Assembly (NCBI RefSeq): GCF_024298765.1
Contig: NZ_CP101210.1
Length of the DNA stretch: 64,000 bases
Source of the DNA: Escherichia coli
GTDB lineage: Bacteria; Pseudomonadota; Gammaproteobacteria; Enterobacterales; Enterobacteriaceae
Reading direction: 5' to 3' (one strand)
The translations under genes were made by a program, and so were the position numbers. Numbering within the stretch: position 1 is the first letter of the stretch; the number at the start of each line of letters is the position of its first letter. Shown piece after piece: positions 12,933 to 27,612 of this stretch. The notes beneath the pieces are model-generated. The model saw nothing but the letters and a program-made list of their open reading frames with translations, was not told where the DNA came from and made no database searches.

Positions 12933-14009
<1,077 letters not shown>

Positions 14010-14440
14010 TTACATATTGTTTTCTTATTGCGATCAAAAACAACAAATTAATAACAAATAATGTGAGGGATAAGAATTGGGTTGAAAGGAAATGAATAAT
14101 TAAAACAATATATTAAGTGTGCTTATACTCTTTTTCGAACTGGTGGCATTTGTTTAAATGCTATTTAAACTGCTTTTCCAGAGTTCAACTTACTGAGTTC
14201 CGTGTCGACTAATGTGAGTAAGATCAATCGCATCCAACCTATGTTACTTGATGGAATCGATAACAATATTAATGAATATACAGATTCCGGGAAGGCTGGC
14301 TATGGGGGCAAATTATTCTCTTTCTGGCAACGGGTAAATAACAGTGACCATTTGTCGAGAAGCTGATACTGAGCTGAGGGATACTGTATATGTCTGGACT
14401 GTAATTGGATGAATTCTATTCAGGGCGGGTCAGGACCAAT

Positions 14441-14624
14441 AAAAAAGCCCGCATCAGCGGGCTTTAATGTCATAGGGAGTCGCGACTCCGTTGCGTATCC
14501 TTTTTTGTCTCCTCACCGTCTGGTCGGTGTCCTGCTGAGACTTATAACTTCCTGTTTTTGTTGGTGTAGTCCTTACACCGTCCAATCATGATTGGTGGAG
14601 CTGGCGGGAGTTGAACCCGTGTCC
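14441..14624. repeat. Left att-associated direct repeat: displaced copy of the ssrA 3' end (~33 nt) plus ~150 bp of ssrA-downstream sequence
   Basis: ~90% identical by eye to 54238-54423; homology to ssrA stops at 14624, after which AT-rich prophage sequence begins. Confidence 0.7.
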
Positions 14625-15050
14625 ATAGTTATGTAATTCATTGAATTTAAATAGCCAAATATTGTTGATTTTACAAGCGGCTCTTTTGCGGAACTTTTTC
14701 TGTCCTGTTACTGTCTTACTATTTATTTTAAAATAGTTTCATTTGGAATTAATGGTTTGTGGTTGCAGTTTCGGAGATAGATAGCATTTTTTGCTAAAAA
14801 ATATTTTTATAAAAAATGTGTGTAAAAATGATGTTATGCACAGATTTATGCACAGAGGCTTTGTGATAAACCAGATTGTTTTGGATAAGTTTGTTTTTTT
14901 GTGATTTGTCAACAATATTATTGACTCTTGTTACTAAAGTGAGTGTTTTCTAAGGTGGTCAGAAGTTGTCCCTTCATGTAATCTTATTAGCCATAAAGAA
15001 CAAAAAATAATTCAACATCATTACCAACTATTTGTAAGATAAGGTTTTTA

Positions 15051-15866
15051 ATGTTGCAGCCAGCAAAAAAAGCATCAGTTATTAGCGCGCGGCTAACGAA
15101 ATACCTCAAAGATGGAGTGAGGATTGATGACTTTAGCTTTAGAAGGATGTTACGTGAGATTGAAGCACTTAGAGATCCTGTCTCTGAGGACTATCTTTTA
15201 GCGTTGGTCTATGGTGCACATGGCCAAGTGAATGAGGCGATAGGCTTCTTTGAGCGTTCCTTGCAGGTATGCCATAATGAGGTTGTTGCAAAGAATTTTC
15301 TTGTTTTCTTGTCAGATTACGGTACGTTGAAGAAAAGCTTTGAAACAAGCATTAAGCTTGCTGAAAGCTTCATATCCCCGTTTATTTATCTTCAAGCTTA
15401 TGAAAACTCCCTCTTTATGGGGAAGATGGCGTTGGCGGAGAAGTATTTCCAGTCATACTCTAAATTGTTCGGAGATAAGGAGCCTGAAAAAATGGACAAC
15501 AATCTTGATGAAGTTGTTTCCCAGGTCGAATCCTTTAAGCAACGTGCCGATCTTTCTGGTTTAGAATATGAACTTATTTTCAATAATGTAGCCAATGTCA
15601 TGGATTCTCAGAAGGTTCATCTTTCGGGAATGCGTTTTTATAATATTTCGGAAGAGAAAGTGAATGCGATTGTATTCATGACAAAGTCTTCTGATGCTGA
15701 ACAAATCGCTGATATGAATATTGAGCTTGCTTTTTCAATGGCTGAGCACGATTGTTTAGTCGGTAAAGATTTTGCTGTTTGGTTTGAATGTAAAGACACA
15801 CATATTGAGCAGAATGCTATCTCCGAATTAGGTCTGATTACCCGGAGGGTTGCACATGCCGGTTAA
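15051..15866 (+). CDS. Hypothetical protein (271 aa), first gene of a two-gene cargo operon beside attL/int; function unknown
   Basis: Clean ORF, soluble and helical-looking, no motif I recognise; AT-rich by eye; AT-rich upstream leader. Confidence 0.55.
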   Translation: MLQPAKKASVISARLTKYLKDGVRIDDFSFRRMLREIEALRDPVSEDYLLALVYGAHGQVNEAIGFFERSLQVCHNEVVAKNFLVFLSDYGTLKKSFETSIKLAESFISPFIYLQAYENSLFMGKMALAEKYFQSYSKLFGDKEPEKMDNNLDEVVSQVESFKQRADLSGLEYELIFNNVANVMDSQKVHLSGMRFYNISEEKVNAIVFMTKSSDAEQIADMNIELAFSMAEHDCLVGKDFAVWFECKDTHIEQNAISELGLITRRVAHAG

Positions 15867-16239
15867 TAGTCAAGATTTTCTCGGTTTTGCAAAAGACTGT
15901 CATCAACGTAATGACGAAATCGGCTATCGAAATGCTATAGCAAGATCCTACTATGGCGCTTACCATCATGTCTTGCCTTGTATGGTAAACGGGCCGAAAG
16001 ACAGTCATCAGGGGCTAATCAATTATTTGCAGGGCGATGCTTCAAGAGGAAGTGAAGTATATGAAGCTAGATATCTAAAAGGGATTAGTTTTATCCTGAG
16101 TCAACTTAAAGCTCAGAGGATTGTTGCAGACTATCGACTTGATCAATCGGTCACTTCTAAACAGTCTGAAGTTGCGATTCTAACAACTGAGAGGCTCTTT
16201 GCTAAGTGTACGGAAATGCTTAAATCGAGAGCCTCCTAA
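15850..16239 (+). CDS. Hypothetical protein (129 aa), overlaps upstream gene by 17 nt; contains an R-x6-H dyad (RSYYGAYHH)
   Basis: Overlapping start implies translational coupling; followed by a terminator hairpin at 16246-16270. Confidence 0.5.
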   Translation: MHMPVNSQDFLGFAKDCHQRNDEIGYRNAIARSYYGAYHHVLPCMVNGPKDSHQGLINYLQGDASRGSEVYEARYLKGISFILSQLKAQRIVADYRLDQSVTSKQSEVAILTTERLFAKCTEMLKSRAS

Positions 16240-16245
16240 TTGATA

Positions 16246-16270
16246 AAGCCACTTAAGTGGCTTTTTTTGT
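16246..16270. terminator. Hairpin plus T-run between the convergent cargo operon and int
   Basis: aaagccacttaagtggcttttttt. Confidence 0.6.
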
Positions 16271-17425
16271 GATATTGCTGGTCGTATTACCGTCATATTC
16301 CTTTAAATATAAACCATAATGACGAAATAACATTTCCGGCCCTTTATGCCCCATTTGAGCTGCAAGCCAAAACAGGTTTGCTCCCCGGCTGATATGGCGG
16401 GTGGCGAATGTATGCCTAGTTTGATATGGATTTCTGTAACGAATACCTGCTTTTCGCAATGTTGGCACCCATGCTTTTTTCCTGATTGCATCAGCACTTG
16501 CCCAAGGCTTATTGGTCTTTGGATCTTCAAAGACAGTAGTATCCTTCATGAATGTAAATGGCTTCTGATTTATCAGCGCCAACATTGCCTCTTCTGTCAG
16601 TTCAACTTTCCGAGTACCTGCTTTTGTCTTTGTCCCTTTGATAACACCGACAACACTTGCGCTCTGGACATGGGCAGTTTTTCCAACAAAGTCGATATCA
16701 CGCCATCGAAGGGCACATAATTCAGAACTACGCAGGCCTGTATGTATAGCGAACCGGAACAGATTTTCCCATTGTTTGTTTCCGGCTGCTGCTAGTAATG
16801 CATCAACTTCTGCTGGTGATAGCGGATCAACTACGTAGCTGCTTTCTGCTTCTGACTTATCACTTTGGTAGCGCGAAGCTGTTACTAACGATACGGGGTT
16901 AATTTGAAGTACCCCATCGGTCACGGCTTCATCAAGTGCTGACCGCAGGAAAGATAACTGGTTGCGAATTGTTTTTAAGGTCGTTTTCTGATTTTGAATC
17001 CACGCTTTCAGGGTTGCTGGTGTTAATTCACTTGCAGGGCAAATGTGAAGTGAGGCTAACGCACTACGGCATTTTTTATAGCCACCAATCGTAGAGGGTG
17101 AAAGTTTTCTTGTTTCGCAGATTTCAAGATATTCGTCCAGGTACATCTTTACCGTTTTGCCTGCAGCAGCATTACCAAAAATTTTCAAACGAGCAGAACG
17201 GGGAAAATATTCTGCATAAATGAATGTTCCCCTTTCGATCTTATTATGGATTTCGCCGAGTGTACGCTCGGCGTATTTAATGTTCTTTGGTGTTACTTCC
17301 AGATTGGAAAGCGGCTCACGACATCTAACTCCTTTGTAGGTGAAAGTTATATTGATCGTTTCTCCCTGGCGGTGTTTCCTGATTGTTACGCCGCGCGGTA
17401 GTTTGAGCAGTTTTGTCTGGCCCAT
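16253..17425 (-). CDS. int: Phage integrase, tyrosine recombinase family
   Basis: 390-aa ORF with C-terminal catalytic region (...HTGLRSSELCALRWRDID...RHTFATRHISRGANLFWLAAQMGH...); adjacent to xis and the att region. Confidence 0.85.
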   Translation of the reverse strand: MGQTKLLKLPRGVTIRKHRQGETINITFTYKGVRCREPLSNLEVTPKNIKYAERTLGEIHNKIERGTFIYAEYFPRSARLKIFGNAAAGKTVKMYLDEYLEICETRKLSPSTIGGYKKCRSALASLHICPASELTPATLKAWIQNQKTTLKTIRNQLSFLRSALDEAVTDGVLQINPVSLVTASRYQSDKSEAESSYVVDPLSPAEVDALLAAAGNKQWENLFRFAIHTGLRSSELCALRWRDIDFVGKTAHVQSASVVGVIKGTKTKAGTRKVELTEEAMLALINQKPFTFMKDTTVFEDPKTNKPWASADAIRKKAWVPTLRKAGIRYRNPYQTRHTFATRHISRGANLFWLAAQMGHKGPEMLFRHYGLYLKEYDGNTTSNITKKAT

Positions 17426-17631
17426 TTTGCAACCTCACTAAGATCAATCCACCTCTCCTTAACGCCTTCAACCTTTAAAACCTGAACACCTTCACGCCAA
17501 ACACCGCGCTGTACACGTTTGTTTATTGCTTCAGGAGTTTCGCCAGTTTCTTTGCAATAAGTTGAGATAGGAACACAATCGAGGTTCAGCATACGTTTCT
17601 CCATTATCCCGTCTGCACACGGGAGCAACAT
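17386..17631 (-). CDS. xis: Putative excisionase / small DNA-binding protein
   Basis: 81-aa basic ORF immediately upstream of and overlapping int by 40 nt, as in lambda xis-int; exact start uncertain. Confidence 0.5.
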   Translation of the reverse strand: MLLPCADGIMEKRMLNLDCVPISTYCKETGETPEAINKRVQRGVWREGVQVLKVEGVKERWIDLSEVAKWARQNCSNYRAA

Positions 17632-17633
17632 TA

Positions 17634-18524
17634 TTAACGAATAGTGTCGTTACTTTGAAGTACAGCAAATGCCATTAATACTTCTAAAGTATATCTTCTA
17701 TAAAATTTAACAAAACCAACATAGAAAACATAGACGAAGAAAAAGCTAAGCATTATTGAAAGTAAACTATAAAGATAATCACTATGAGTACATAATCGAT
17801 AAATAAAGGTTGGAACTGATACCCAAAATGAAATTATAAAGATTAAACATATGTTTCTGCAAAAACCATATAATGCAACATAGTTTTGAATTTTTGTTTG
17901 ATGTTGTTTTGAAAACTCATAAACATAATGATATGCCAATCTGAAGAGATCATCATCAAGTCCGTTTTTATCTTGTAATAATTGGCGATTTGTTATGAAC
18001 TTTTTCTCATAACCTTCTTTGATCATTAACCATGTTGTATTAGCTAAATGAAATGGTAGAGATTGAGAATAACATAGTTTTTGTGTTATAAAATCCCATA
18101 GTATTATTGGGCATAATACGCATTTGATTATGCGATTCTTTATTTTTGTTTTTTTATCAGCGCTTCTCTCATCGCATGATGGGCTACAAATGCTTTCTGA
18201 GGTATCTATCAATTTTTTAAATAGATATTTGGAAGGATATCCTAATTCTTTATTCATGTATTTTTCGATAAAAAATGCTGACGTGATAGAAATAAAATGT
18301 CCAGCTATATAAGATATAATAACTATTGAAGCGTAGTTCAAAATGCCAAAGATTTGACTTTGACCTCTGAGCAATTCACTTAAGTCAATAACAATATCTA
18401 GATCGAATGTCAAACCACAGAAATACATTAATAGGATAAAAAAACCACCTGGTATTAAATATCCAAGAAAGTCATAGAATGAGAATGGATTTTGATTCAT
18501 TGTTGCTCTCCAATAATTTTTCAA
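17634..18524 (-). CDS. Hypothetical integral membrane protein (296 aa; ~2 N-terminal and ~2 C-terminal TM helices around a soluble core)
   Basis: Strikingly AT-rich by eye compared with neighbours; hydrophobic stretches FFILLMYFCGLTF, IVIISYIAGHFISITSAFFI, ICLIFIISFWVSVPTFIY, LLSIMLSFFFVYVFYVGFV. Confidence 0.55.
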   Translation of the reverse strand: MKNYWRATMNQNPFSFYDFLGYLIPGGFFILLMYFCGLTFDLDIVIDLSELLRGQSQIFGILNYASIVIISYIAGHFISITSAFFIEKYMNKELGYPSKYLFKKLIDTSESICSPSCDERSADKKTKIKNRIIKCVLCPIILWDFITQKLCYSQSLPFHLANTTWLMIKEGYEKKFITNRQLLQDKNGLDDDLFRLAYHYVYEFSKQHQTKIQNYVALYGFCRNICLIFIISFWVSVPTFIYRLCTHSDYLYSLLSIMLSFFFVYVFYVGFVKFYRRYTLEVLMAFAVLQSNDTIR

Positions 18525-18608
18525 TTTGTAATATAACCTATATCTATATGTTAATAAATTACTTATATGTTCTTTTATGGCAGAGTTTGAATTCGTACGT
18601 GCTGATTT

Positions 18609-19145
18609 TTACGACTCAGTTAACTCTTTAAAGCGTTCCATAAACATCCCATAGGTATGGCCTGGCGACAGTGGAATAACTTTGAACATCTCTGTTGCCG
18701 GGATACCTTCCAGTACGGGCCAGAAAGAGCCATCATCAAGCCCGAGATCGCGGCGTTCGGTTGCCAGCATGATGAGATCGGCATATTTCACGGGCGTACT
18801 CATAACCGGGGGTAACCCGTATTTCTCACGGATTACGGCGTCTATTTTTTCTTCCATCCGTTTATAGTCAGGAAGAAGGCGTTTCAGTGGAGCCGGGATG
18901 TCCTGGCAATACGCTTCTGTTGCATCATGCATTAACGCTTCAAAAGCAAATTCCTGCGGTACCAGCTGGCTGCAAAGCACCGCATGTTGGGCGACGCTGT
19001 AGAAGTGTGAAAGATGGCCGGCAAAGCGACAGATATTTGAAAGGGAAACCGCGATATCGTTAATATCGATGTTGTCTTTATTTATCCTGTCATAATAAAA
19101 ATGTTTCCCGGAAAAAGTTTTAATAAATGACATTTTGTTCTCCAC
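18609..19145 (-). CDS. HD-domain phosphohydrolase, YfdR-like (putative 5'-deoxynucleotidase)
   Basis: 178-aa ORF with H...HD motif (ALMHDATEAY); same size and position as YfdR of prophage CPS-53. Confidence 0.65.
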   Translation of the reverse strand: MENKMSFIKTFSGKHFYYDRINKDNIDINDIAVSLSNICRFAGHLSHFYSVAQHAVLCSQLVPQEFAFEALMHDATEAYCQDIPAPLKRLLPDYKRMEEKIDAVIREKYGLPPVMSTPVKYADLIMLATERRDLGLDDGSFWPVLEGIPATEMFKVIPLSPGHTYGMFMERFKELTES

Positions 19146-19261
19146 GTTATATGCGCTGCACCGCGCTGAATTTTGGTTAAAGAAAACCCTCGCCTTCAGG
19201 CGATTATTGAGTCAATTACGTTTCCATAAATGCCCCCGCAGGGGCATTTGCAGTAATGAAA

Positions 19262-20086
19262 TCAGGCGGTGAAAGTCCCAATAAAGGTTTCTACTTTGCT
19301 GTCCTTGAATTTCTCAACAAGCAGATCACGAAATTCGTTAGCCATATCTTCCTGCACCGCTTCCAGCTGAATAATGCGCAGAACCAGTACAGGACGATCG
19401 CCAGTGATAATGCTGAGGCGTAATTTAAACGGACGTTCTTTCAGACCTTCAAACGGAACGCATTTAAACTCAAATGCCACTGGCATAATGTCTTTGGTCT
19501 TCGCTTCGACAGACTCCATCAGGGAGCGTTTGCCGCTGAAGTCATTATCTTCAAAATCAGCAGTCTGGTTTGCTTCAATCGTGATTTTACGGACCGCCGC
19601 AGCCGCTTTTGTTGCCTGAATGGTGTCACCATTAGCATCAAAGCCCACAAGATAGTCGGCCCAGTCTTCGATCCATTCTGCCAGTGATTTCTGGGAGTTA
19701 CGCTCTCCATTAACAGACAACAGAGCAGAGAACGGTGCTGTCTTTTTCAGTTTGAGAGTGGCGGTGTTATCTGCGTGACCTGGTTCATCAATAGTACCCA
19801 GGTTAAGCACACTGACGGCACGCATATTATCAGCATCGATAAAGCAGCGGGTGCCTTCATCTGCAAGATCTTTAGAATAACGGGTAAAGTCATCAATGCT
19901 GGCAGTGGAAAGCGCACCACGGAAACGGAAGCGATTTAAATTAAATTTTTCCAGATCATGAATGCGGAAATTCTCAGGCAATGCCACAGCATCGGCACCA
20001 ATCTTACTGATAATTTCATTAACACCCTGAGCAGAAATAAGAGCATGGATTTGATTAATTGCGGTTGCGTCTAAGTTCTGAGACAT
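19262..20086 (-). CDS. YfdQ-like (DUF2303) prophage early protein
   Basis: 274-aa [24 protein letters not shown]...; recalled similarity to CPS-53 YfdQ. Confidence 0.6.
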
Positions 20087-20151
20087 AATAAGTCCTCACT
20101 ATATAAAGATATTCAGTGATGAGATAAATAATCAGTTAATTAAGAACGATA

Positions 20152-20514
20152 TTAATGACCTGCTGCGCGGAGTTTTCCGTCAGGCTCACCGGCAAGAGTC
20201 AGTAATTGTCCCTGGTCTTCCTGCAGAATAGTCAGGCGACCACCGCGATTGACATACATCGGCGTTTCGGTGGTGTCTTCTTCGGAAATTTTCCCACGGT
20301 TAGTCGGGCGAACATATGAGAGTTTGTGTTTGATTTTCACACGGTTCTCATCAAATGGTTCGATTTCCAGGTTGAGTGAGACCTTACCTTTGGTTTTCGT
20401 GTTCATCACACCGGAAGCGACTTCACTGAGAACTGCGCCGATTTTGGTTTCAAATACGCCGCCGTCCAGCTCCCCGATAAATGCCTGCACATCAGTACTG
20501 CGTTCGCTAGCCAT
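20152..20514 (-). CDS. YfdP-like prophage early protein (hypothetical)
   Basis: Likely start at MASERSTD, with GAGGAG 8 nt upstream on the coding strand; track ORF extends to 20700. Confidence 0.5.
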   Translation of the reverse strand: MASERSTDVQAFIGELDGGVFETKIGAVLSEVASGVMNTKTKGKVSLNLEIEPFDENRVKIKHKLSYVRPTNRGKISEEDTTETPMYVNRGGRLTILQEDQGQLLTLAGEPDGKLRAAGH

Positions 20515-20856
20515 TTTGCTGCTCCTCATCATATCGACCCTGCAAGGCCGATTAGTTTCTCCACAAAACAGAGAAGAACACCTGCGGTGGCAGCCGCCCG
20601 GATGGATTGGGTTATGAGCCCGTCGTCCGATGATGTTCTTCTCTGTTTTGTAAAAAGAGCGGTACCAGCCGGAAGCAAGTGTACAAACTGGTACCGCCAA
20701 AGCAGTGGCTGTTGTGGTGACCGGTGCTGATCTCCGGCTTGCGGTTATTTCAGACTCTCACGGGCGTTTAATTGCCCCGCCGAACAGCTCTTTTCCGCAA
20801 TAGCTGCAATGTCTTTCGCGCATCAGCCTGCGCATTCACCACAACTCTAAAAACAA

Positions 20857-20909
20857 ATGTAGGATATCCAACGTGTGGGTGTCAAGAGTTTATGTTGGTT
20901 ATCCTACAT
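20857..20909. promoter_or_regulatory. Left operator/promoter region (OL/PL-like): two copies of the repressor operator motif
   Basis: atgtaggatatccaac and gttggttatcctacat, the same motif found three times at OR. Confidence 0.55.
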
Positions 20910-20971
20910 AAAAAGATAGGCTCATAAAAAAACCGGGGATACCCCGGTTTTGCGATAGTGAGGAAGATGTG

Positions 20972-21625
20972 TCAAAAATCCATTATTACTTGTTTGACAA
21001 GACCAACTATTCTGCAGTTCTCACCGCATTCAATAGTTTTATAGTTAGGATTTAGTGGGACGAGATACCTGTTCGGCCAGTCCTCAACAAATTTTTTGAG
21101 TGTCGCTTCTTGCCCACCATTGATATGGGCAACAACGATTTTTCCGTTAATACACTCTGTATCAATAATATCTGGCTCTACGATAACGATAGAACCTTCT
21201 GGTATCGATGGTGAGCCGAGGGGATTGGTCATTGAATCACCACGGACCCGTAGTGCAAATGCCATTTCTGATACAAGGGCGGTAGTATAAACCCACTCTT
21301 CAGCATCTTCTTTCCTGACACCAGGCTCCGTCATTGTCCATGAACCCGCCTGAACCCACGAGATGAGGGGGACTTTTTTAACTGCGAATATTTCAGGTTT
21401 TAGATTTATCTTTGGTTCAGGCGAGCCTTTTCCGCTAACAAGCCACAGAGGATCGCATTTAAGTGCGTTGGCTAGGGCTTGAAGGTTGGCTCCATTTGGT
21501 TGGTAGTCGTCCTTTTCCCATCCAGTAACCGTGACACGGTTCACACCAGTCAAATCAGCCAGTGCTTGTTGTGTCAGGTTCAGTTCTTTTCGCCTTTGGC
21601 GAATACGATCACTCATGTTCATCAT
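20972..21625 (-). CDS. CI-like prophage repressor (N-terminal XRE HTH, C-terminal S24 LexA-like peptidase domain)
   Basis: 217-aa ORF; HTH (LTQQALADLTGVNRVTVTGWE) and S24 motifs (RVRGDSMTNP ... KKF); divergent from a cro-like gene. Confidence 0.8.
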   Translation of the reverse strand: MMNMSDRIRQRRKELNLTQQALADLTGVNRVTVTGWEKDDYQPNGANLQALANALKCDPLWLVSGKGSPEPKINLKPEIFAVKKVPLISWVQAGSWTMTEPGVRKEDAEEWVYTTALVSEMAFALRVRGDSMTNPLGSPSIPEGSIVIVEPDIIDTECINGKIVVAHINGGQEATLKKFVEDWPNRYLVPLNPNYKTIECGENCRIVGLVKQVIMDF

Positions 21626-21688
21626 GTAGGCAATCCTACCACATGCTCATGTAGGATTCTTGACATTGATATGTTGGATATCCTACAT
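21624..21688. promoter_or_regulatory. Right operator region (OR1-3-like) with divergent PRM/PR promoters
   Basis: Three operator copies (atgtaggcaatcctac, atgtaggattcttgac, gttggatatcctacat); ttgaca -35 at 21660-21665; cI ATG abuts the operator. Confidence 0.6.
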
Positions 21689-21720
21689 TTCTGCTTAACG
21701 TAATTTAACGGGAGACAGAA

Positions 21721-21918
21721 ATGCGGAAATCCGACGTGATTAATTATTTCGGCGGAGTTTGTAAAACCGCCGAAGCCCTAGGTATTAAGCATCCGTCTGT
21801 TTCAGAGTGGCCTGAGATTATTCCTGAAGGCCGAGCGTACCAGTTAGAAAAAATTACTAACGGGAAACTGAAAGTTGACGTGTCTTTATATCAAAAGACT
21901 AACAGTGCTGCGGCATAA
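21721..21918 (+). CDS. Cro-like small HTH regulator (YdaS/DicC-type)
   Basis: 65-aa ORF divergent from cI directly after OR. Confidence 0.65.
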   Translation: MRKSDVINYFGGVCKTAEALGIKHPSVSEWPEIIPEGRAYQLEKITNGKLKVDVSLYQKTNSAAA

Positions 21919-21945
21919 AAACACCACAGAAATGAGGAATTAACC

Positions 21946-22530
21946 GTGGGTAAAGAACCTGAATGGAAAGTTGATAAACAACCAGCATGGCTGGTGGCAG
22001 CAATACGAAGAACGATTGCTGATTTACCTCATGGCTATGAGGAAGCAGCAGAAATTCTTGGTTTGTATAAATCTGATGATATCACCCCAGCAAAAGATCA
22101 ATTGCATAACAGACTGCGTAGCGGTGGGGATCAAATTTTTCCACTTGAGTGGGCCATGGTTTTACAGGATGCCAGTGGTACCAGGCATGTAACAGATGCA
22201 ATAGCCCGTCGTAGTAATGGGGTGTTTGTGCCGCTGGTGGTCATTGATGACATTGACAATGGTGACATTAATCAGCGGCTGATGGAGTCAATAGAATGGA
22301 TTGGCAAGCATTCCCAGTACTTACGCAAGGCAACTGCTGATGGAGTTATTGACCAAGCTGAGCGTGAGCAAATCGAAGAGAACAGCTACCAAGTAATGGC
22401 GAAGTGGCAGGAGCATTTAACACTGTTATTTCGTGTTTTTTGTGCGCCGGAAAAGAGTAACGCCCGCGAGTGTGCAGCTCCGGGCGTCGTGGCGTCGATT
22501 GCTTCTGGTTGTGGAGAAACTAACGCATGA
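21946..22530 (+). CDS. YdaT-like (CII-position) prophage regulatory protein
   Basis: 194-aa ORF, GTG start with GAGG upstream; position after cro. Confidence 0.5.
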
Positions 22531-22865
22531 ACAGTTTAACAACACACTACCGTCGTTCGCAACTGATTGCGCTTCCTGTACCGGGTGGAAAAGCGAAGGT
22601 GGAGTATTGCTATGCAGTGAATGTACCAGGTGATAGGGAAATTGTAACCCACAGCTTTGCAGAGTGGGCTGTGGGTGATTTCAACCGGCAGAAGGAGACA
22701 GTCCTTTGCGACAAGTTAACCGCTGGTTCAAAGATCACTACGGAGTGCCCGTCAGAGTCATTCGTTGGGAGCCGGAAACACAACGGGTTATCTACCTCCG
22801 TGAAGGCTATGAACATGAATGCTTCAGTCCGCTCGAACAGTTTCGTCGTAAATTCAGGGAAATAG
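22527..22865 (+). CDS. Hypothetical protein (112 aa); may be the 5' part of a frameshifted gene
   Basis: ORF overlapping the 22706-22918 ORF in another frame. Confidence 0.3.
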
Positions 22866-22918
22866 AGGTCGGTCATGAGCCTGTTAATGACATCCCAGCC
22901 CATTGTGATAAATCGTGA
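22706..22918 (+). CDS. Hypothetical protein (70 aa); may be the 3' part of a frameshifted gene
   Basis: Overlaps the upstream ORF and the replication-gene start. Confidence 0.3.
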
Positions 22919-23867
22919 TCTTGCATGCCGTATTGGTCTGAATGAGGCAATTGTGTTGCAGCAGCTTCATTACTGGCTGAATGAAACGAATTCAGGCACT
23001 GAGCATGGCGGAATTCGCTGGGTTTATAACACGACAGAACAGTGGCTGGAGCAGTTTCCGTTCTGGTCAGAGTCCACTCTGAAACGCACATTTGCAAGCC
23101 TGAAATCACTTGGGGTTTTGCGTCGCGAGCAACTCAATAAATCGAAGCGTGACATGACCAACTTCTACACGATCAACTATGAAAGTGAGCTTTTAGAAGA
23201 GGTCAAAGTGAACGAATCCATCAGGTCAAAATGCACTTCTCCATCGGGTCAAAGTGACCTGATGGATGAGCGCAAAATGACACGATCCATTGGTTCAAAA
23301 CGACACGCTGTCATCGGGTCAAAATGGCCCAATGATCTTACAGAGAATACAACAGAGATTACTACAGAGAATAAAACCTCTTCTCGTCCGGACGCTTCGC
23401 AACCGGACACGCAGATGGCTGAACAGGATTTTTTAACTCGCCATCCTGATGCGGTTGTATTCAGCCCTAAAAAGCGCCAGTGGGGAACGCAGGATGATTT
23501 GACCTGCGCACAGTGGCTCTGGAAAAAAATCATCGCTCTGTACGAGCAGGCCGCCGAATGTGACGGCGAAGTGGTACGTCCTAAAGAACCGAACTGGACA
23601 GCCTGGGCAAACGAAATTCGCCTGATGTGTGTACAGGATGGGCGTACTCACAAACAAATCTGCGAGATGTACAGCCGCGTCAGCCGCGATCCGTTCTGGT
23701 GCCGTAACGTGCTCAGCCCGTCGAAGCTGCGGGAAAAATGGGATGAGCTTTCCCTGCGCTTATCGCCGTCCGTCAGCACGTACACAGAAAAACGCGAAGA
23801 TCCGTACTTCAAAGCCAGTTACGACAACGTGGACTACAGCCAGATCCCGGCAGGATTCAGGGGGTGA
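22875..23867 (+). CDS. Phage replication initiator (lambda O-like / replisome organiser) with embedded origin iterons
   Basis: 330-aa ORF with N-terminal DNA-binding-like region; iterons inside the coding sequence as in lambda O. Confidence 0.7.
   Translation: MSLLMTSQPIVINRDLACRIGLNEAIVLQQLHYWLNETNSGTEHGGIRWVYNTTEQWLEQFPFWSESTLKRTFASLKSLGVLRREQLNKSKRDMTNFYTINYESELLEEVKVNESIRSKCTSPSGQSDLMDERKMTRSIGSKRHAVIGSKWPNDLTENTTEITTENKTSSRPDASQPDTQMAEQDFLTRHPDAVVFSPKKRQWGTQDDLTCAQWLWKKIIALYEQAAECDGEVVRPKEPNWTAWANEIRLMCVQDGRTHKQICEMYSRVSRDPFWCRNVLSPSKLREKWDELSLRLSPSVSTYTEKREDPYFKASYDNVDYSQIPAGFRG
23199..23326. repeat. Origin-type iterons: five direct repeats of ~CATCRGGTCAAARTG inside the replication gene
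   Basis: gaggtcaaagtg, ccatcaggtcaaaatg, ccatcgggtcaaagtg, ccattggttcaaaacg, tcatcgggtcaaaatg, followed by an A/T-rich stretch. Confidence 0.7.
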
Positions 23868-23869
23868 TC

Positions 23870-23962
23870 ATGAGTCTTTTGAATGAAGTTCAGAAATTCA
23901 TTGAAGCCCATCCGGGGTGTACTTCCGGAGACATTGCGGATGCTTTTTACGTGGGGGCTTAA
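23870..23962 (+). CDS. Possible small coupled ORF (30 aa) between the replication gene and the methylase
   Basis: ATG overlaps the upstream stop; TAATG overlap with the methylase start; found by hand. Confidence 0.3.
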   Translation: MSLLNEVQKFIEAHPGCTSGDIADAFYVGA

Positions 23963-24615
23963 TGAGTAATAAATATTGTCAGGCGCTGGTGGAGCTGCGG
24001 AACAAACCATCCCATGAACTGAAGGAGGTGGGCGATCAGTGGCGCACGCCGGACAGCATTTTCTGGGGAATTAACACCTTGTTTGGCCCGTTTGTTCTGG
24101 ATCTGTTCACTGACGGTGATAACGCCAAATGTGCCGCGTATTACACGGCGGAAGACAACGCGCTGGCGCATGACTGGTCAGAACGCCTTGCGGAGCTTAA
24201 AGGTGCTGCCTTTGGCAATCCCCCATACAGTCGCGCCAGTCAGCATGAGGGGCAATACATCACCGGCATGCGTTACATCATGAAACATGCCAGTGCCATG
24301 CGTGATAAGGGCGGGCGCTATGTTTTCCTGATCAAAGCTGCCACCAGCGAAGTGTGGTGGCCGGAAGATGCGGACCATATTGCTTTTATTCGCGGGCGTA
24401 TTGGTTTTGAACTGCCTGCCTGGTTTATCCCGAAAGATGAGAAGCAGGTGCCGATAGGCGCTTTCTTCGCTGGTGCTATTGCTGTTTTTGACAAGACCTG
24501 GAAGGGACCGGCAATCAGCTACATCGGGCGCGATGAACTTGAGGCATGTGGTGAGGCCTTTCTGGCGCAGGTTCGCCAGCAGGCAGAAAAACTGGTCAGG
24601 GAGATGGTGGCATGA
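23962..24615 (+). CDS. Phage-type DNA N6-adenine methyltransferase (Dam-like, orphan)
   Basis: Start at MSNKYCQALVEL (track ORF starts at 23917); contains the FGNPPY motif, a D/N-PP-Y/F-type catalytic signature. Confidence 0.7.
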   Translation: MSNKYCQALVELRNKPSHELKEVGDQWRTPDSIFWGINTLFGPFVLDLFTDGDNAKCAAYYTAEDNALAHDWSERLAELKGAAFGNPPYSRASQHEGQYITGMRYIMKHASAMRDKGGRYVFLIKAATSEVWWPEDADHIAFIRGRIGFELPAWFIPKDEKQVPIGAFFAGAIAVFDKTWKGPAISYIGRDELEACGEAFLAQVRQQAEKLVREMVA

Positions 24616-25001
24616 AGCTGATCCTGCCTTTTCCGCCCAGCGTGAACACGTACTGGCGACACCCCAACAAAGGGGCGTTTGCTGGTAAGAGCCTGATAAG
24701 CGCGGCGGGGCGAAAATTCCAGAGCGCGGCGTGCGCAGCAATAGTTGAGCAGTTACGTCGTCTGCCGAAACCAACGTCGGCACCTGCTTCAGTGGAGATC
24801 GTGTTGTTTCCTCCGGATAACCGGATCCGCGATCTGGACAACTATAACAAGGCGCTGTTTGACGCCCTGACCCACGCGGGTGTGTGGGAAGACGACAGTC
24901 AGGTGAAAAGAATGCTGGTGGAGTGGGGACCGGTTATCCCGGGAGGGAAGGTCGAGATCACTATCAGTAAGTACGAGAAAACGGCGGGTGCAGCCGCCTG
25001 A
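24612..25001 (+). CDS. rusA: RusA-family Holliday junction resolvase
   Basis: 129-aa ORF MKLILPFPPSVNTYWRH...DLDNYNKALFDALTHAGVWEDDSQV. Confidence 0.8.
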   Translation: MKLILPFPPSVNTYWRHPNKGAFAGKSLISAAGRKFQSAACAAIVEQLRRLPKPTSAPASVEIVLFPPDNRIRDLDNYNKALFDALTHAGVWEDDSQVKRMLVEWGPVIPGGKVEITISKYEKTAGAAA

Positions 25002-25020
25002 TTAAGAGGAGAAACGAAGT

Positions 25021-25818
25021 ATGAATAATCTGATGGTCATTGATGGTATTGAAGTTCGTCGTGATGCTTATGGTCGTTACAGCCTGAACGATCTGCACAG
25101 GTCTGCCGGTTCTCTGGATAAGCATAAGCCTGCATTCTGGCTCCGCAATGAGCAAACTGAACGTTTAATAAGCGAGTTGCAGATTTGCAACTCGGTCAAT
25201 ATAGAGCCAGTTAACGTTATTCGTGGCGGAAATAACCAGGGGACGTATGTCTGCAAAGAACTGGTGTATGCCTATGCAATGTGGATCAGCCCGTCATTCC
25301 ATCTGAAGGTGATCCGTACTTTCGACATGGTAACCAGCGCACCGGAAAAATTATCCGGACAGGCTGCTGACAAGATGCAGGCTGGTGTGATCCTGCTGGA
25401 CTTTATGCGCCGGGAATTAAACCTGTCTAACTCATCAGTGCTTGGAGCCTGTCAGAAGCTTCAGGAGGCTGTTGGCTTACCGAATCTGGCACCGCGCTAT
25501 GCCATTGATGCTCCTGCTGATGCACTCGATGGCTCAAGCCGCCCGACACTGTCACTGAGTGCACTGCTGAAGCAGTATGGTATCCGCCTGACAGCTAATC
25601 AGGCATATCACCAGATGGCGAAGCTGGGGATCGTTGAACAACGTGAACGATACAGCCGCACTGCGATTAACAACATCAAAAAATTCTGGTCGCTGACGGC
25701 GAAAGGCTGCATGTTCGGCAAGAACATCACCAGTCCCGCAAATCCGCGCGAGACGCAGCCGCATTTCTTCGAATCCCGATTCCCTGAGCTGTTAAAGCTG
25801 CTCGATACCGTTCATTGA
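25021..25818 (+). CDS. KilA-N-domain protein (antirepressor-like)
   Basis: N-terminal pattern (IDGIEVRRDAYGRYSLNDLHRSAG...KPAFWLRNEQT) typical of KilA-N. Confidence 0.6.
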   Translation: MNNLMVIDGIEVRRDAYGRYSLNDLHRSAGSLDKHKPAFWLRNEQTERLISELQICNSVNIEPVNVIRGGNNQGTYVCKELVYAYAMWISPSFHLKVIRTFDMVTSAPEKLSGQAADKMQAGVILLDFMRRELNLSNSSVLGACQKLQEAVGLPNLAPRYAIDAPADALDGSSRPTLSLSALLKQYGIRLTANQAYHQMAKLGIVEQRERYSRTAINNIKKFWSLTAKGCMFGKNITSPANPRETQPHFFESRFPELLKLLDTVH

Positions 25819-25819
25819 G

Positions 25820-26815
25820 GTGACCGTGAGAGCACTACTGACCCCTGAAATTGCCCCGCGTATGGGGATCGTATTGTTCAGACCAGGTTCAGAGCTGATG
25901 CCCTTGTTTATGCAGGGGCGTGTCCTGCTGGAGCCTGAGCCGGAACGTTATTCATCTTTCGCCAGTGGTGCCGTTCCGGCGGCATCACAACCGCTGGCGG
26001 ATGATCCTGCCGTTCGGGCCGTGTTCCGCAATGAGGCAGTGATCCGTCGTGCTGGTGGCGTGGAATGTCTTGAAAGCTGGTTACTTCGTGAAAAAGGCTG
26101 CCAGTGGCCTCATTCCGGCTGGCACAGCGAGAACATGACAACAATGCGACACGCTCCGGGCGCAATCCGTCTGTGCTGGCACTGCGATAACCAGCTGCGC
26201 GATCAGTTCACGGAACGGCTGGAATCAATGGCAACGGATAACTGTGCCCGCTGGGTGTTGTCTGTTGTGCGTCGGGATCTCGGTTTTGATGACAGTCATG
26301 TTGTGACAATGCCGGAACTGTGCTGGTGGCTGATTCGTAATGATCTGGCGGATGCCTTACCGGAAAGTGCAGCCCGTAAGGCACTGAGATTACCGAAGCC
26401 TGTTGTGCCGTCTGTTACCCGGGAAAGTGACCTTGTGCCTTCGGTTCCTGCCACCAGCATCATCCAGGATAAGGCGAAAAAGGTGCTGGCGCTGAAAGTG
26501 GATCCGGAGTCGCCGGAGTCTTTTATGTTACGCCCAAAACGTCGCCGCTGGGTTAATGAAAAGTACACGCGCTGGGTTAAGACACAGCCGTGTGCATGTT
26601 GTGGAAAGCCCGCTGATGATCCCCACCACCTGATAGGTCACGGTCAGGGTGGAATGGGAACAAAAGCGCATGACCTCTTTGTGTTGCCTTTGTGCAGAAA
26701 GCATCACGACGAGCTGCATGCGGATACCGTGGCATTTGAAGAGAAGTATGGCTCTCAGCTGGAGCTGATATTTCGTTTTATCGATCGTGCGCTGGCAATT
26801 GGCGTATTGGCGTAA
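25820..26815 (+). CDS. DUF968 (YdfU-like) prophage protein with C-terminal Cys/His cluster
   Basis: C-terminal CACCGKPADDPHHL...CRKHHDELH motif. Confidence 0.55.
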   Translation: MTVRALLTPEIAPRMGIVLFRPGSELMPLFMQGRVLLEPEPERYSSFASGAVPAASQPLADDPAVRAVFRNEAVIRRAGGVECLESWLLREKGCQWPHSGWHSENMTTMRHAPGAIRLCWHCDNQLRDQFTERLESMATDNCARWVLSVVRRDLGFDDSHVVTMPELCWWLIRNDLADALPESAARKALRLPKPVVPSVTRESDLVPSVPATSIIQDKAKKVLALKVDPESPESFMLRPKRRRWVNEKYTRWVKTQPCACCGKPADDPHHLIGHGQGGMGTKAHDLFVLPLCRKHHDELHADTVAFEEKYGSQLELIFRFIDRALAIGVLA

Positions 26816-26828
26816 GTGGAGAACGAGC

Positions 26829-27581
26829 ATGAACCTTGAAGCCTTACCAAAATATTACTCCCCAAAATCTCCAAAATTGAGCGATGACGCACCGGCGACA
26901 GGCTCTGGTGGTTTAACAATTACGGATGTAATGGCTGCGCAGGGGATGGTGCAGTCGAAAGCACCGCTTGGGTTTGCCTTATTCCTGGCAAAAGTTGGTG
27001 TTCAGGATCCTCAGTTTGCGATTGAAGGTCTGCTCAATTACGCGATGGCACTGGATAACCCGACATTGAATAAATTGAGTGAAGAAACCCGGCTACAGAT
27101 CATTCCTTACCTTGTGAATTTTGCCTTTGCTGATTATTCCAGGTCTGCGGCAAGTAAGGCTCGCTGTGAGCATTGTGCTGGTACTGGATTTCATAATGTA
27201 TTGCGCGAGGTGGTGAAACACTCCAGAAGCGGGGAATCTGTTATCAAGGAAGAGTGGGTGAAGGAACTATGTCAGCATTGTCATGGTAAGGGAGAAGTCA
27301 GCACAGCGTGCAGAGGGTGTAAGGGTAAAGGTATTGTCCTGGATGAAAAAAGAACCCGGCTTCATGGTACGCCTGTTTATAAGATTTGTGGGCGTTGCAA
27401 TGGTAACCGTTTTAGCCGTTTACCAACCACACTGGCGCGGCATCATGTCCAGAAGCTGGTACCAGACCTGACGGATTATCAGTGGTACAAAGGATATGCA
27501 GATGTCATTGATAAACTGGTTACAAAGTGCTGGCAGGAAGAAGCATATGCAGAGACACAATTGAGAAAAGTGACAAGATAA
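26829..27581 (+). CDS. Late-gene antiterminator Q (zinc-binding)
   Basis: CEHCAGTG...CQHCHGKG...CRGCKGKG Cys clusters; immediately upstream of a promoter plus terminator pair and the lysis genes. Confidence 0.7.
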   Translation: MNLEALPKYYSPKSPKLSDDAPATGSGGLTITDVMAAQGMVQSKAPLGFALFLAKVGVQDPQFAIEGLLNYAMALDNPTLNKLSEETRLQIIPYLVNFAFADYSRSAASKARCEHCAGTGFHNVLREVVKHSRSGESVIKEEWVKELCQHCHGKGEVSTACRGCKGKGIVLDEKRTRLHGTPVYKICGRCNGNRFSRLPTTLARHHVQKLVPDLTDYQWYKGYADVIDKLVTKCWQEEAYAETQLRKVTR

Positions 27582-27612
27582 ATGATTTTCGCCGAAGATG
27601 GCGACATGATGC

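Follow-up and report, generated by a model that had tools for sequence, protein, structure and literature searches.

In lambdoid phages, the replication origin consists of iterons and an A/T-rich tract in the central part of gene O; the Shiga toxin (Stx) phages carry six iterons, and the O protein binds the A/T-rich DNA in single-stranded form (PMC7466680). In lambda, P22 and L, the gene of the initiator contains iterons particular to each phage (PMC8022706). DnaA and plasmid Rep proteins bind repeats of unwinding elements in single-stranded form and in a sequence-specific manner (PMC10797057). Here we describe a stretch of 64,000 nucleotides from Escherichia coli (contig NZ_CP101210.1; this whole stretch is hereafter called the window), which harbours an O-like replication initiator gene with an array of iterons and a block of 12-mers inside it. 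The repeats and the 12-mers very probably make up the origin from which a lambdoid prophage replicates, embedded in the central, linker-coding part of the prophage's own initiator gene. Such a layout is what one expects of a lambdoid phage; what is added here is proof at the DNA level, the exact boundaries of the module, and the same origin layout in distant phage groups.

The initiator gene is located on the plus strand at 22875..23867 and encodes a protein of 330 amino acids (aa). The match of this open reading frame (ORF) to the family PHROG 391, 'replication initiation O-like', covers all of the protein (aa 1-330 against positions 1-298 of the 298 of the profile, E 8e-102). The gene is 99.4% identical to the 'Primosomal protein I' gene of phage mEp460_4F5. 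The iteron array occupies 23196..23334 on the plus strand, corresponding to aa 107-152 in the central part of the gene, and possesses six units in a 23-bp phase, starting at 23196, 23219, 23242, 23265, 23288 and 23312. The cores of the six units start at 23203, 23226, 23249, 23272, 23295 and 23319, with a spacing of 23, 23, 23, 23 and 24 nt. The original prediction had described five direct repeats within ~130 bp; repeats were indeed found at that place, in agreement with Tandem Repeats Finder (TRF) and the periodicity analysis, but they form six phased units and not five. The 15-mer CATCRGGTCAAARTG of that prediction, searched with up to 3 mismatches, matches the plus strand at 23196, 23219, 23242, 23288 and 23312, three of these matches being exact. 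Across the 64 kb, the same 15-mer has 15 matches against an expected 6.25 +/- 2.4, and at least 15 matches were obtained in 0 of 100 shuffles. The remaining unit at 23265 (GATGAGCGCAAAATG, 4 mismatches) is degenerate, yet exactly in phase.

The self-match of the array at lag 23 reaches 72/115 (z ~8) and is the top periodic signal of the window for lags of 5 to 60; TRF reported 5.4 copies with a period of 23. The iteron unit is a ~21-bp imperfect palindrome around a CAAAATG core, ATCrGGTCAAAATGACCyGAT, with the unit consensus TccATCrGGTCAAAATGaCCyGAT. A near-perfect palindrome is present in unit 3 (CATCGGGTCAAAGTGACCTGATG, with a dyad match of 9/10). There is weak evidence of a further degenerate unit, a candidate seventh or 'zeroth' iteron at 23173..23195 on the plus strand, where the best lag-23 window begins at 23172 and ATGAAAGTGAGC lies in phase.

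Three tandem 12-mers, ACAGAGAATACA, ACAGAGATTACT and ACAGAGAATAAA, follow the array at 23340..23375 on the plus strand (3.2 copies with a period of 12 in TRF) and are the presumed DNA-unwinding element. Array and 12-mers both lie within 22875-23867, hence inside the O-like ORF, as had been predicted. No 40-bp duplex of the gene is less stable than the block from 23337 (dG -44.6, gene mean -55.5 +/- 3.5). Its low stability corresponds to the 98.5th percentile of the window and is comparable to that of the A/T-rich region of lambda (-43.0). In six out of seven Gram-negative relatives, too, the gene has its least stable 40 bp at the 12-mers, just as lambda has them in its A/T-rich region. All three CAGAGANTA sites detected in the 64 kb, both strands included, belong to the 12-mer block, and the segment 23334-23377 is 100% invariant in all five aligned sequences, among them ~78%-identical relatives. 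The A/T-rich stretch that had been reported to follow the repeats is real and of low stability, but it is only moderately A/T-rich and is in fact a 12-mer repeat. In the prophage of E. coli N39 (L023 1067-1126), there are five 12-mers (TENTTEITTENTTEITTENK) rather than three, next to six unaltered iterons.

Similar to lambda, the origin occupies mid-gene, where it separates the parts coding for the N-terminal and C-terminal domains of the initiator (aa 107-168 of 330 here, aa 116-144 of 299 for the lambda iterons). The four annotated lambda iterons, ATCCCTCAAAACGAGGGA, have a spacing of 20, 24 and 23 and are followed by a tract with a GC content of 0.22. In both systems the iterons are imperfect palindromes of ~19-21 bp with an A-tract centre (ATCCCTCAAAACGAGGGA in lambda, ATCGGGTCAAAGTGACCTGAT here) and a spacing of ~23 bp. 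A low-stability, repeat-containing region on the same side, the placement of the gene after cII, and homologous C-terminal domains are also common to both, and six iteron units are likewise found in the Stx phages. The prediction that this locus mirrors the lambda origin was supported by the PHROG 391 match, the lambdoid position of the gene, and the iterons and low-stability region in mid-gene. However, the N-terminal domain belongs to another family, the iteron sequence is another one, and no P or loader gene is present here. The unwinding region also differs, with three 12-mers in exact phase and a GC content of 0.33, whereas lambda has a 40-bp tract with a GC content of 0.22.

As in gene 18 of P22 and L, which are distantly related initiator genes, each type of initiator specificity has its own iterons inside the gene, and the module passes as a unit among lambdoid phages (PMC8022706). 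The repeats themselves are unlike those of the window, with six 11-bp repeats in L and four ~20-bp repeats in P22. These phages also possess their own DnaB-type helicase, gp12, which has no counterpart in this prophage. The 12-mers resemble the 13-mers of oriC and RK2 and the DnaA-trios. Those are short tandem repeats that adjoin the array bound by the initiator, where the origin is least stable; opening depends on them, and the initiator binds them strand-specifically as single-stranded DNA (PMC10797057). The repeat found here differs in being a 12-mer, with the motif CAGAGAnTAC, inside a coding region, and it is a candidate opening element.

The possibility was considered that a repetitive, low-complexity linker in the protein, or slippage during replication, gave rise to the pattern as a side effect and that it has no role as DNA. 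The region does encode an apparently disordered interdomain linker, the 12-mers are in frame here and encode TENTTEITTENK, and the number of 12-mers varies between three and five when E. coli N39 is included. Nevertheless, the coding sequence itself strongly disfavours this explanation, which we regard as extremely improbable. The period of 23 nt is not a multiple of three, and the array can therefore not be in frame; according to the ORF translation, the GGTCAAA cores are read as E-V-K, R-S-K, G-Q-S and others, across three frames. Compared with phage HannyBb (~78% identity), synonymous codon differences at identical amino acids amount to 36/79 in the N-terminal domain and 43/89 in the C-terminal part; the iteron segment has only 3/27, and the 12-mers have 0/14. 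Taken together, three out of 41 positions of the origin differ synonymously against 79 out of 168 elsewhere (Fisher p=7e-7), so that synonymous sites of the origin are nearly frozen. In the iteron segment, nucleotide identity with HannyBb (0.82) is higher than amino-acid identity (0.65), the opposite of normal coding sequence. Synonymous change is also suppressed in comparison with Klebsiella phage Kp4882-3 (4/35 against 42/80, p=3e-5).

Codon choice in the 12-mers points in the same direction. Among ten phages, glutamate is encoded by GAG in 29 out of 30 codons inside the 12-mers and in 91 out of 206 elsewhere, and threonine by ACA or ACT in 51 out of 52 codons inside and in 75 out of 173 elsewhere. 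In Erwinia phage PEp14, all eight threonine codons of the 12-mers are ACA or ACT, compared with none of the 14 in the remaining gene. The codon choice of the 12-mers is thus fixed against the preference of each genome. Moreover, some 12-mers of Bacillus phage TP21-L and Lactobacillus phage mv4 are read in a shifted frame. The repeats are accordingly DNA elements and not peptide repeats, and selection acts on them at the DNA level. Absence of the repeats from related phages had been named beforehand as an argument against their role; array and 12-mers were instead found to be conserved in relatives of ~78% identity, with suppressed synonymous change, and the layout was also found in distant phages. 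An ORF on the minus strand (23249-23533, 94 aa) overlaps the array. The conservation pattern is explained by the plus-strand gene together with the DNA repeats, and an overlapping gene on the minus strand was set aside.

The initiator gene is a mosaic, with a junction at 23378..23384. Identity with the O genes of the SfII type starts at ~23381, right after the last 12-mer; upstream of the junction the gene is completely unlike the SfII-type genes, whereas downstream it is ~97% identical to them. In megablast searches with the initiator gene, the first 490 nt were common to few phages, and nt 491-993 were found with ~97% identity in SfII, SfIV and many others. Coverage of the SfII-type genes begins at query positions 491-497, and pairwise identity begins at CTTCTCGTCCGGACGC. 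SfII keeps the C-terminal half but possesses an unrelated N-terminal domain and other repeats, namely four in-frame 15-nt units TCTGACCCGTCAAAA (L005 2368-2429). Phage Kp4882-3 and the E. coli prophage GENOMIC23-001 show the reverse, as the N-terminal domain (81%), six GGTCAAAATG iterons and the 12-mers are retained next to an unrelated C-terminal domain. The N-terminal domain, the iterons and the 12-mers are therefore inherited as one block, independently of the C-terminal domain, which is the comparative signature expected if the N-terminal domain reads the iterons. Binding of the iterons by this domain is supported by the co-inheritance and by its predicted winged-helix fold.

A host factor, another phage protein or the C-terminal domain of the initiator should also be considered as the binder of the repeats. 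The CAAAATG core is similar across hosts, and GTCAAAA is also present in the unrelated repeats of the SfII type. However, the repeats change when the N-terminal domain is swapped and the C-terminal domain is kept, as in SfII, and they stay when the C-terminal domain is swapped, as in Kp4882-3. A search of the region revealed neither a DnaA-box cluster nor a site for integration host factor (IHF), and the origin shows no enrichment of GATC sites. A host factor common to all is unlikely as the binder, given that the hosts extend from E. coli to Staphylococcus and Bacteroides. We consider a binder other than the N-terminal domain very unlikely. The 15-nt repeats of SfII are candidate iterons of the alternative N-terminal domain; they have the GTCAAAA core in common with the iterons of the window, and no CAGAGA 12-mers follow them.

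The presumed reader of the iterons is encoded by 22875..23195 on the plus strand (aa 1-107), which is predicted to form a winged helix according to AlphaFold2 and Foldseek. The AlphaFold2 model, based on an alignment of 61 sequences, has a mean pLDDT of 85.6 and a winged-helix topology. The top Foldseek matches in PDB are all winged-helix DNA binders, including staphylococcal plasmid RepA, as its N-terminal domain and in complex with DNA (4pql/4pt7/5kbj; E ~0.01-0.03, TM ~0.5). Searches with the initiator in Pfam (E<0.01), in NCBIfam and in PDB sequences gave no match, and the N-terminal domain can therefore not be named by sequence. No DnaD or replisome-organizer domain of Pfam was detected in the initiator. 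The only link of this kind is to PHROG families labelled DnaD-like, which match its N-terminal domain, and some Gram-positive relatives were called DnaD-like by their depositors. Homologues of the N-terminal domain are found mostly as truncated proteins, none of them with a Pfam annotation; they helped to build the alignment for the model but gave the domain no name.

Plasmid initiators of the RepA_N family have iterons within the rep coding sequence, and these are bound by the N-terminal domain. The winged-helix N-terminal domain of the RepA_N initiators of pSK41 and pTZ2162 (RepA; 4pql, 4pt7, 5kbj) is among the best structural matches of the domain described here. However, the structural match is weak (E ~0.03, TM ~0.4-0.5) and there is no sequence similarity; the RepA_N proteins also belong to plasmids and not to phages, and they have another C-terminal domain.

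The C-terminal domain is encoded by 23442..23756 on the plus strand (aa ~190-294). It shares 34% identity with lambda O over 148 aa in BLASTP (E 2e-27), and it alone is homologous to lambda O. The protein ends in a tail, IPAGFRG (23844..23864, plus strand), a motif common to initiators with otherwise different C-terminal domains. The corresponding tails are IPPGFRG in HannyBb, VPAGFRS in Kp4882-3 and VPHGFRG in Pantoea phage AH07. The final 76 nt of the initiator gene are 96-97% identical to the ends of the O genes of many lambdoid and Stx phages. As a short motif, the tail might serve to dock onto a replication protein of the host, or it might be a linker conserved for recombination. ORF292 of Lactobacillus phage mv4 (L017 1492-2367), a relative of the initiator, ends in ...DDDLPF. 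We take this tail to resemble the acidic C-terminal tail of the bacterial single-stranded DNA-binding protein (SSB; DDDIPF), and it may be a different way to dock onto host replication proteins.

The origin module is not restricted to this prophage. DNA matching the N-terminal domain and iteron region was found in 1976 out of 5426 complete E. coli genomes, mostly with 80-90% identity, and a tblastn search with the N-terminal domain revealed 123 phage records from many phyla. Eighteen relatives with this N-terminal domain were examined, from phages of gamma-proteobacteria, Pseudomonas, Xanthomonas, Burkholderia, Staphylococcus, Bacillus, Geobacillus, Listeria, Lactobacillus, Flavobacterium, Bacteroides and Vibrio. 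Periodic repeats of 22-23 nt are present right 3' of the part coding for the N-terminal domain in 16 of the 18; they are weak in the Geobacillus phage and none were found in the Vibrio phage. The iteron core is GGTCAAAATGACC in the window, HannyBb, Kp4882-3 and the Providencia phage, GGGCAAATTGCCC in the Pantoea and Erwinia phages, SopranoGao and Pseudomonas phage AF, GGACAAAATGGCC in Staphylococcus phage 96, and GTGTCAAAATGA in Bacillus phage TP21-L. The same repeat period with other sequences was found in the Listeria phage, mv4, the Xanthomonas phage, BcepMigl, and the Flavobacterium and Bacteroides phages. The flanks of the iterons vary by clade (GGTCA.., GGGCA.., GGACA.., GTGTCA..).

In all gamma-proteobacterial and Pseudomonas relatives the iterons are succeeded by the 12-mers CAGAGAnTAC, and the same is true of Bacillus phage TP21-L, the Listeria phage and mv4. 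Single copies are present in Staphylococcus phage 96 and the Geobacillus phage. The motif is absent from the most distant relatives, and in the Bacteroides phages only the iteron part recurs. From these comparisons, a two-part origin is recognised that appears to accompany an undescribed N-terminal domain across distant phage groups. No paper describing this type of origin was found in the literature searched; a prior description is possible, for instance in the review of Weigel and Seitz (2006) on phage replication modules. Relatives with the same N-terminal domain possess different partner genes, such as a primase/helicase in Pseudomonas phage AF, a DnaC-like loader in BcepMigl, and a G39P-like loader together with a helicase in the Geobacillus phage. 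In others the partner is an 'ATP-binding protein', as in an E. coli prophage, or nothing.

One could speculate that the 12-mers are the sequence-specific opening element of this family of N-terminal domains, being recognised by the conserved winged-helix part, probably as single-stranded DNA in the manner of the DnaA-trios or the repeats of RK2 and F. They would then have been kept from E. coli prophages to phages of Staphylococcus, Bacillus and Lactobacillus while the iterons diversified. We regard this as a tentative proposal that is rather doubtful at present.

Regarding the origin as a whole, dimers of the N-terminal winged helix would occupy the six phased palindromic iterons and form a complex similar to the O-some. 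The phase of 23 bp (~2.2 helical turns) and the A-tract cores would favour wrapping or bending, judging from what is known of the lambda O-some. The resulting stress would open the adjacent 12-mer block, for which the low stability was found here, and the initiator may, more speculatively, keep the opened 12-mers single-stranded. Equally speculative is the next step, in which the lambda-O-like C-terminal domain and/or the IPAGFRG tail would recruit the host helicase without a phage loader. As genes of the P, DnaC-like and DnaB-like kinds are all lacking from the prophage, the recruited helicase would presumably be the host DnaB-DnaC.

The repeats could also be binding sites of the initiator with a mainly regulatory role, in titration, autoregulation, handcuffing or exclusion of related phages, with the true unwinding site located elsewhere. 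Iteron arrays in lambda and in plasmids are known for such secondary roles, and the present data concern conservation and co-inheritance, not the firing of an origin. Against this, the array lies immediately beside the gene's least stable duplex, a segment that is also constrained at the DNA level, and the layout is that of the canonical lambda origin. Furthermore, no other strong repeat array or A/T-rich candidate was seen in the early region, and no comparable periodic signal was found in the 64 kb. A purely regulatory array is thus unlikely, and the reading as a replication origin is preferred.

Several points weigh against this reading or against parts of it. The stretch after the iterons is moderately A/T-rich, with a GC content of 0.33 over 46 nt (5% of windows of the same size are equally low), compared with 0.22 in lambda. 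The N-terminal domain has no detectable homology to that of lambda O (no match to PF04492, Phage_rep_O, and an hhalign probability of 0.3%), so that the analogy with lambda rests on architecture. The Foldseek matches of the domain are weak (E ~0.01-0.1, TM ~0.5) and indicate a generic winged-helix fold only. The base before CAAA in the iterons (T, G or A) varies in parallel with the residues at positions 67 and 73 in the third predicted helix (ES..F, xD..L, ER..F), but this is suggestive only because it comes from ~10 phylogenetically non-independent sequences. The codon counts of the 12-mers pool related sequences, and their p-values are therefore overstated. As no helicase-loader gene is present, the steps downstream of opening are conjecture. 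Lastly, experiments on any member of this family of N-terminal domains were not found in the searchable literature.

The element that hosts the initiator gene is an apparently complete lambdoid prophage, judging from the early region and from matches to sequenced phages. The order of the early genes is lambdoid, with a LexA/cI-like repressor gene (20972-21625, minus strand), a cro-like gene, a CII (CP76)-like gene, a DUF4222 ORF and the initiator gene. Genes 3' of the initiator comprise dam, rusA, a KilA-N-type regulator, an HNH/DUF968-like gene and Q. The integrase is encoded at 16253-17425, and large ORFs on the plus strand run to ~50 kb. A P-like, DnaC-like or DnaB-like gene was found neither beside the initiator nor in the early-left region, the early regions of the prophage together spanning 16253-27600 of the window. 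No sigma-70-like promoter was detected in a scan of 22500-24100, and matches resembling terminators occur at chance level. A reading of the region as structured RNA was rejected, since the only Rfam match in 20500-25500 was below threshold, attributable to chance and located outside the gene.

The ORF of 112 aa assigned to DUF4222 and PHROG 1170 (22527-22865) ends just 5' of the start of the initiator gene; in RefSeq, a shorter overlapping DUF4222 coding sequence is annotated. This ORF accompanies initiators of the type found in the window and those of the SfII type alike. In mEp460_4F5, SfII and E. coli N39, a PerC-family gene (~160 aa) is located between the initiator gene and dam (L001 3996-4484; L005 3003-3488). 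The window has only a gap of ~50-95 nt at 23868-23961, and the PerC-family gene is apparently missing. Outside the prophage, the second-ranked periodic signal of the window was found at 14780-14900 (lag 15, 58/115 matches). TRF detected there, at 14834-14856, just a 12-nt unit TTATGCACAGAT in 1.9 copies, and 13500-17600 is without a tRNA gene.

These results fix the probable replication origin of a type of prophage that is widespread in E. coli and pair a DNA-binding domain with its sites in a clear manner that can be tested. The boundaries of the module show lambdoid phages swapping origin specificity as a single block of N-terminal domain, iterons and 12-mers. Since no loader gene is present, the prophage also offers a compact case for how a lambda-O-like C-terminal domain would recruit the host helicase without P. 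The series of clades provides a natural set for studying how winged-helix initiators shift their iteron specificity, and the recurrent layout with a nearly invariant 12-mer gives a simple rule by which origins of this family of initiators can be located from sequence. If the 12-mers were indeed sequence-specific opening elements, they would be part of a widespread, previously undescribed two-part origin grammar of variable iterons and an invariant opening motif, and origins would be predictable straight from the sequence in thousands of phages.

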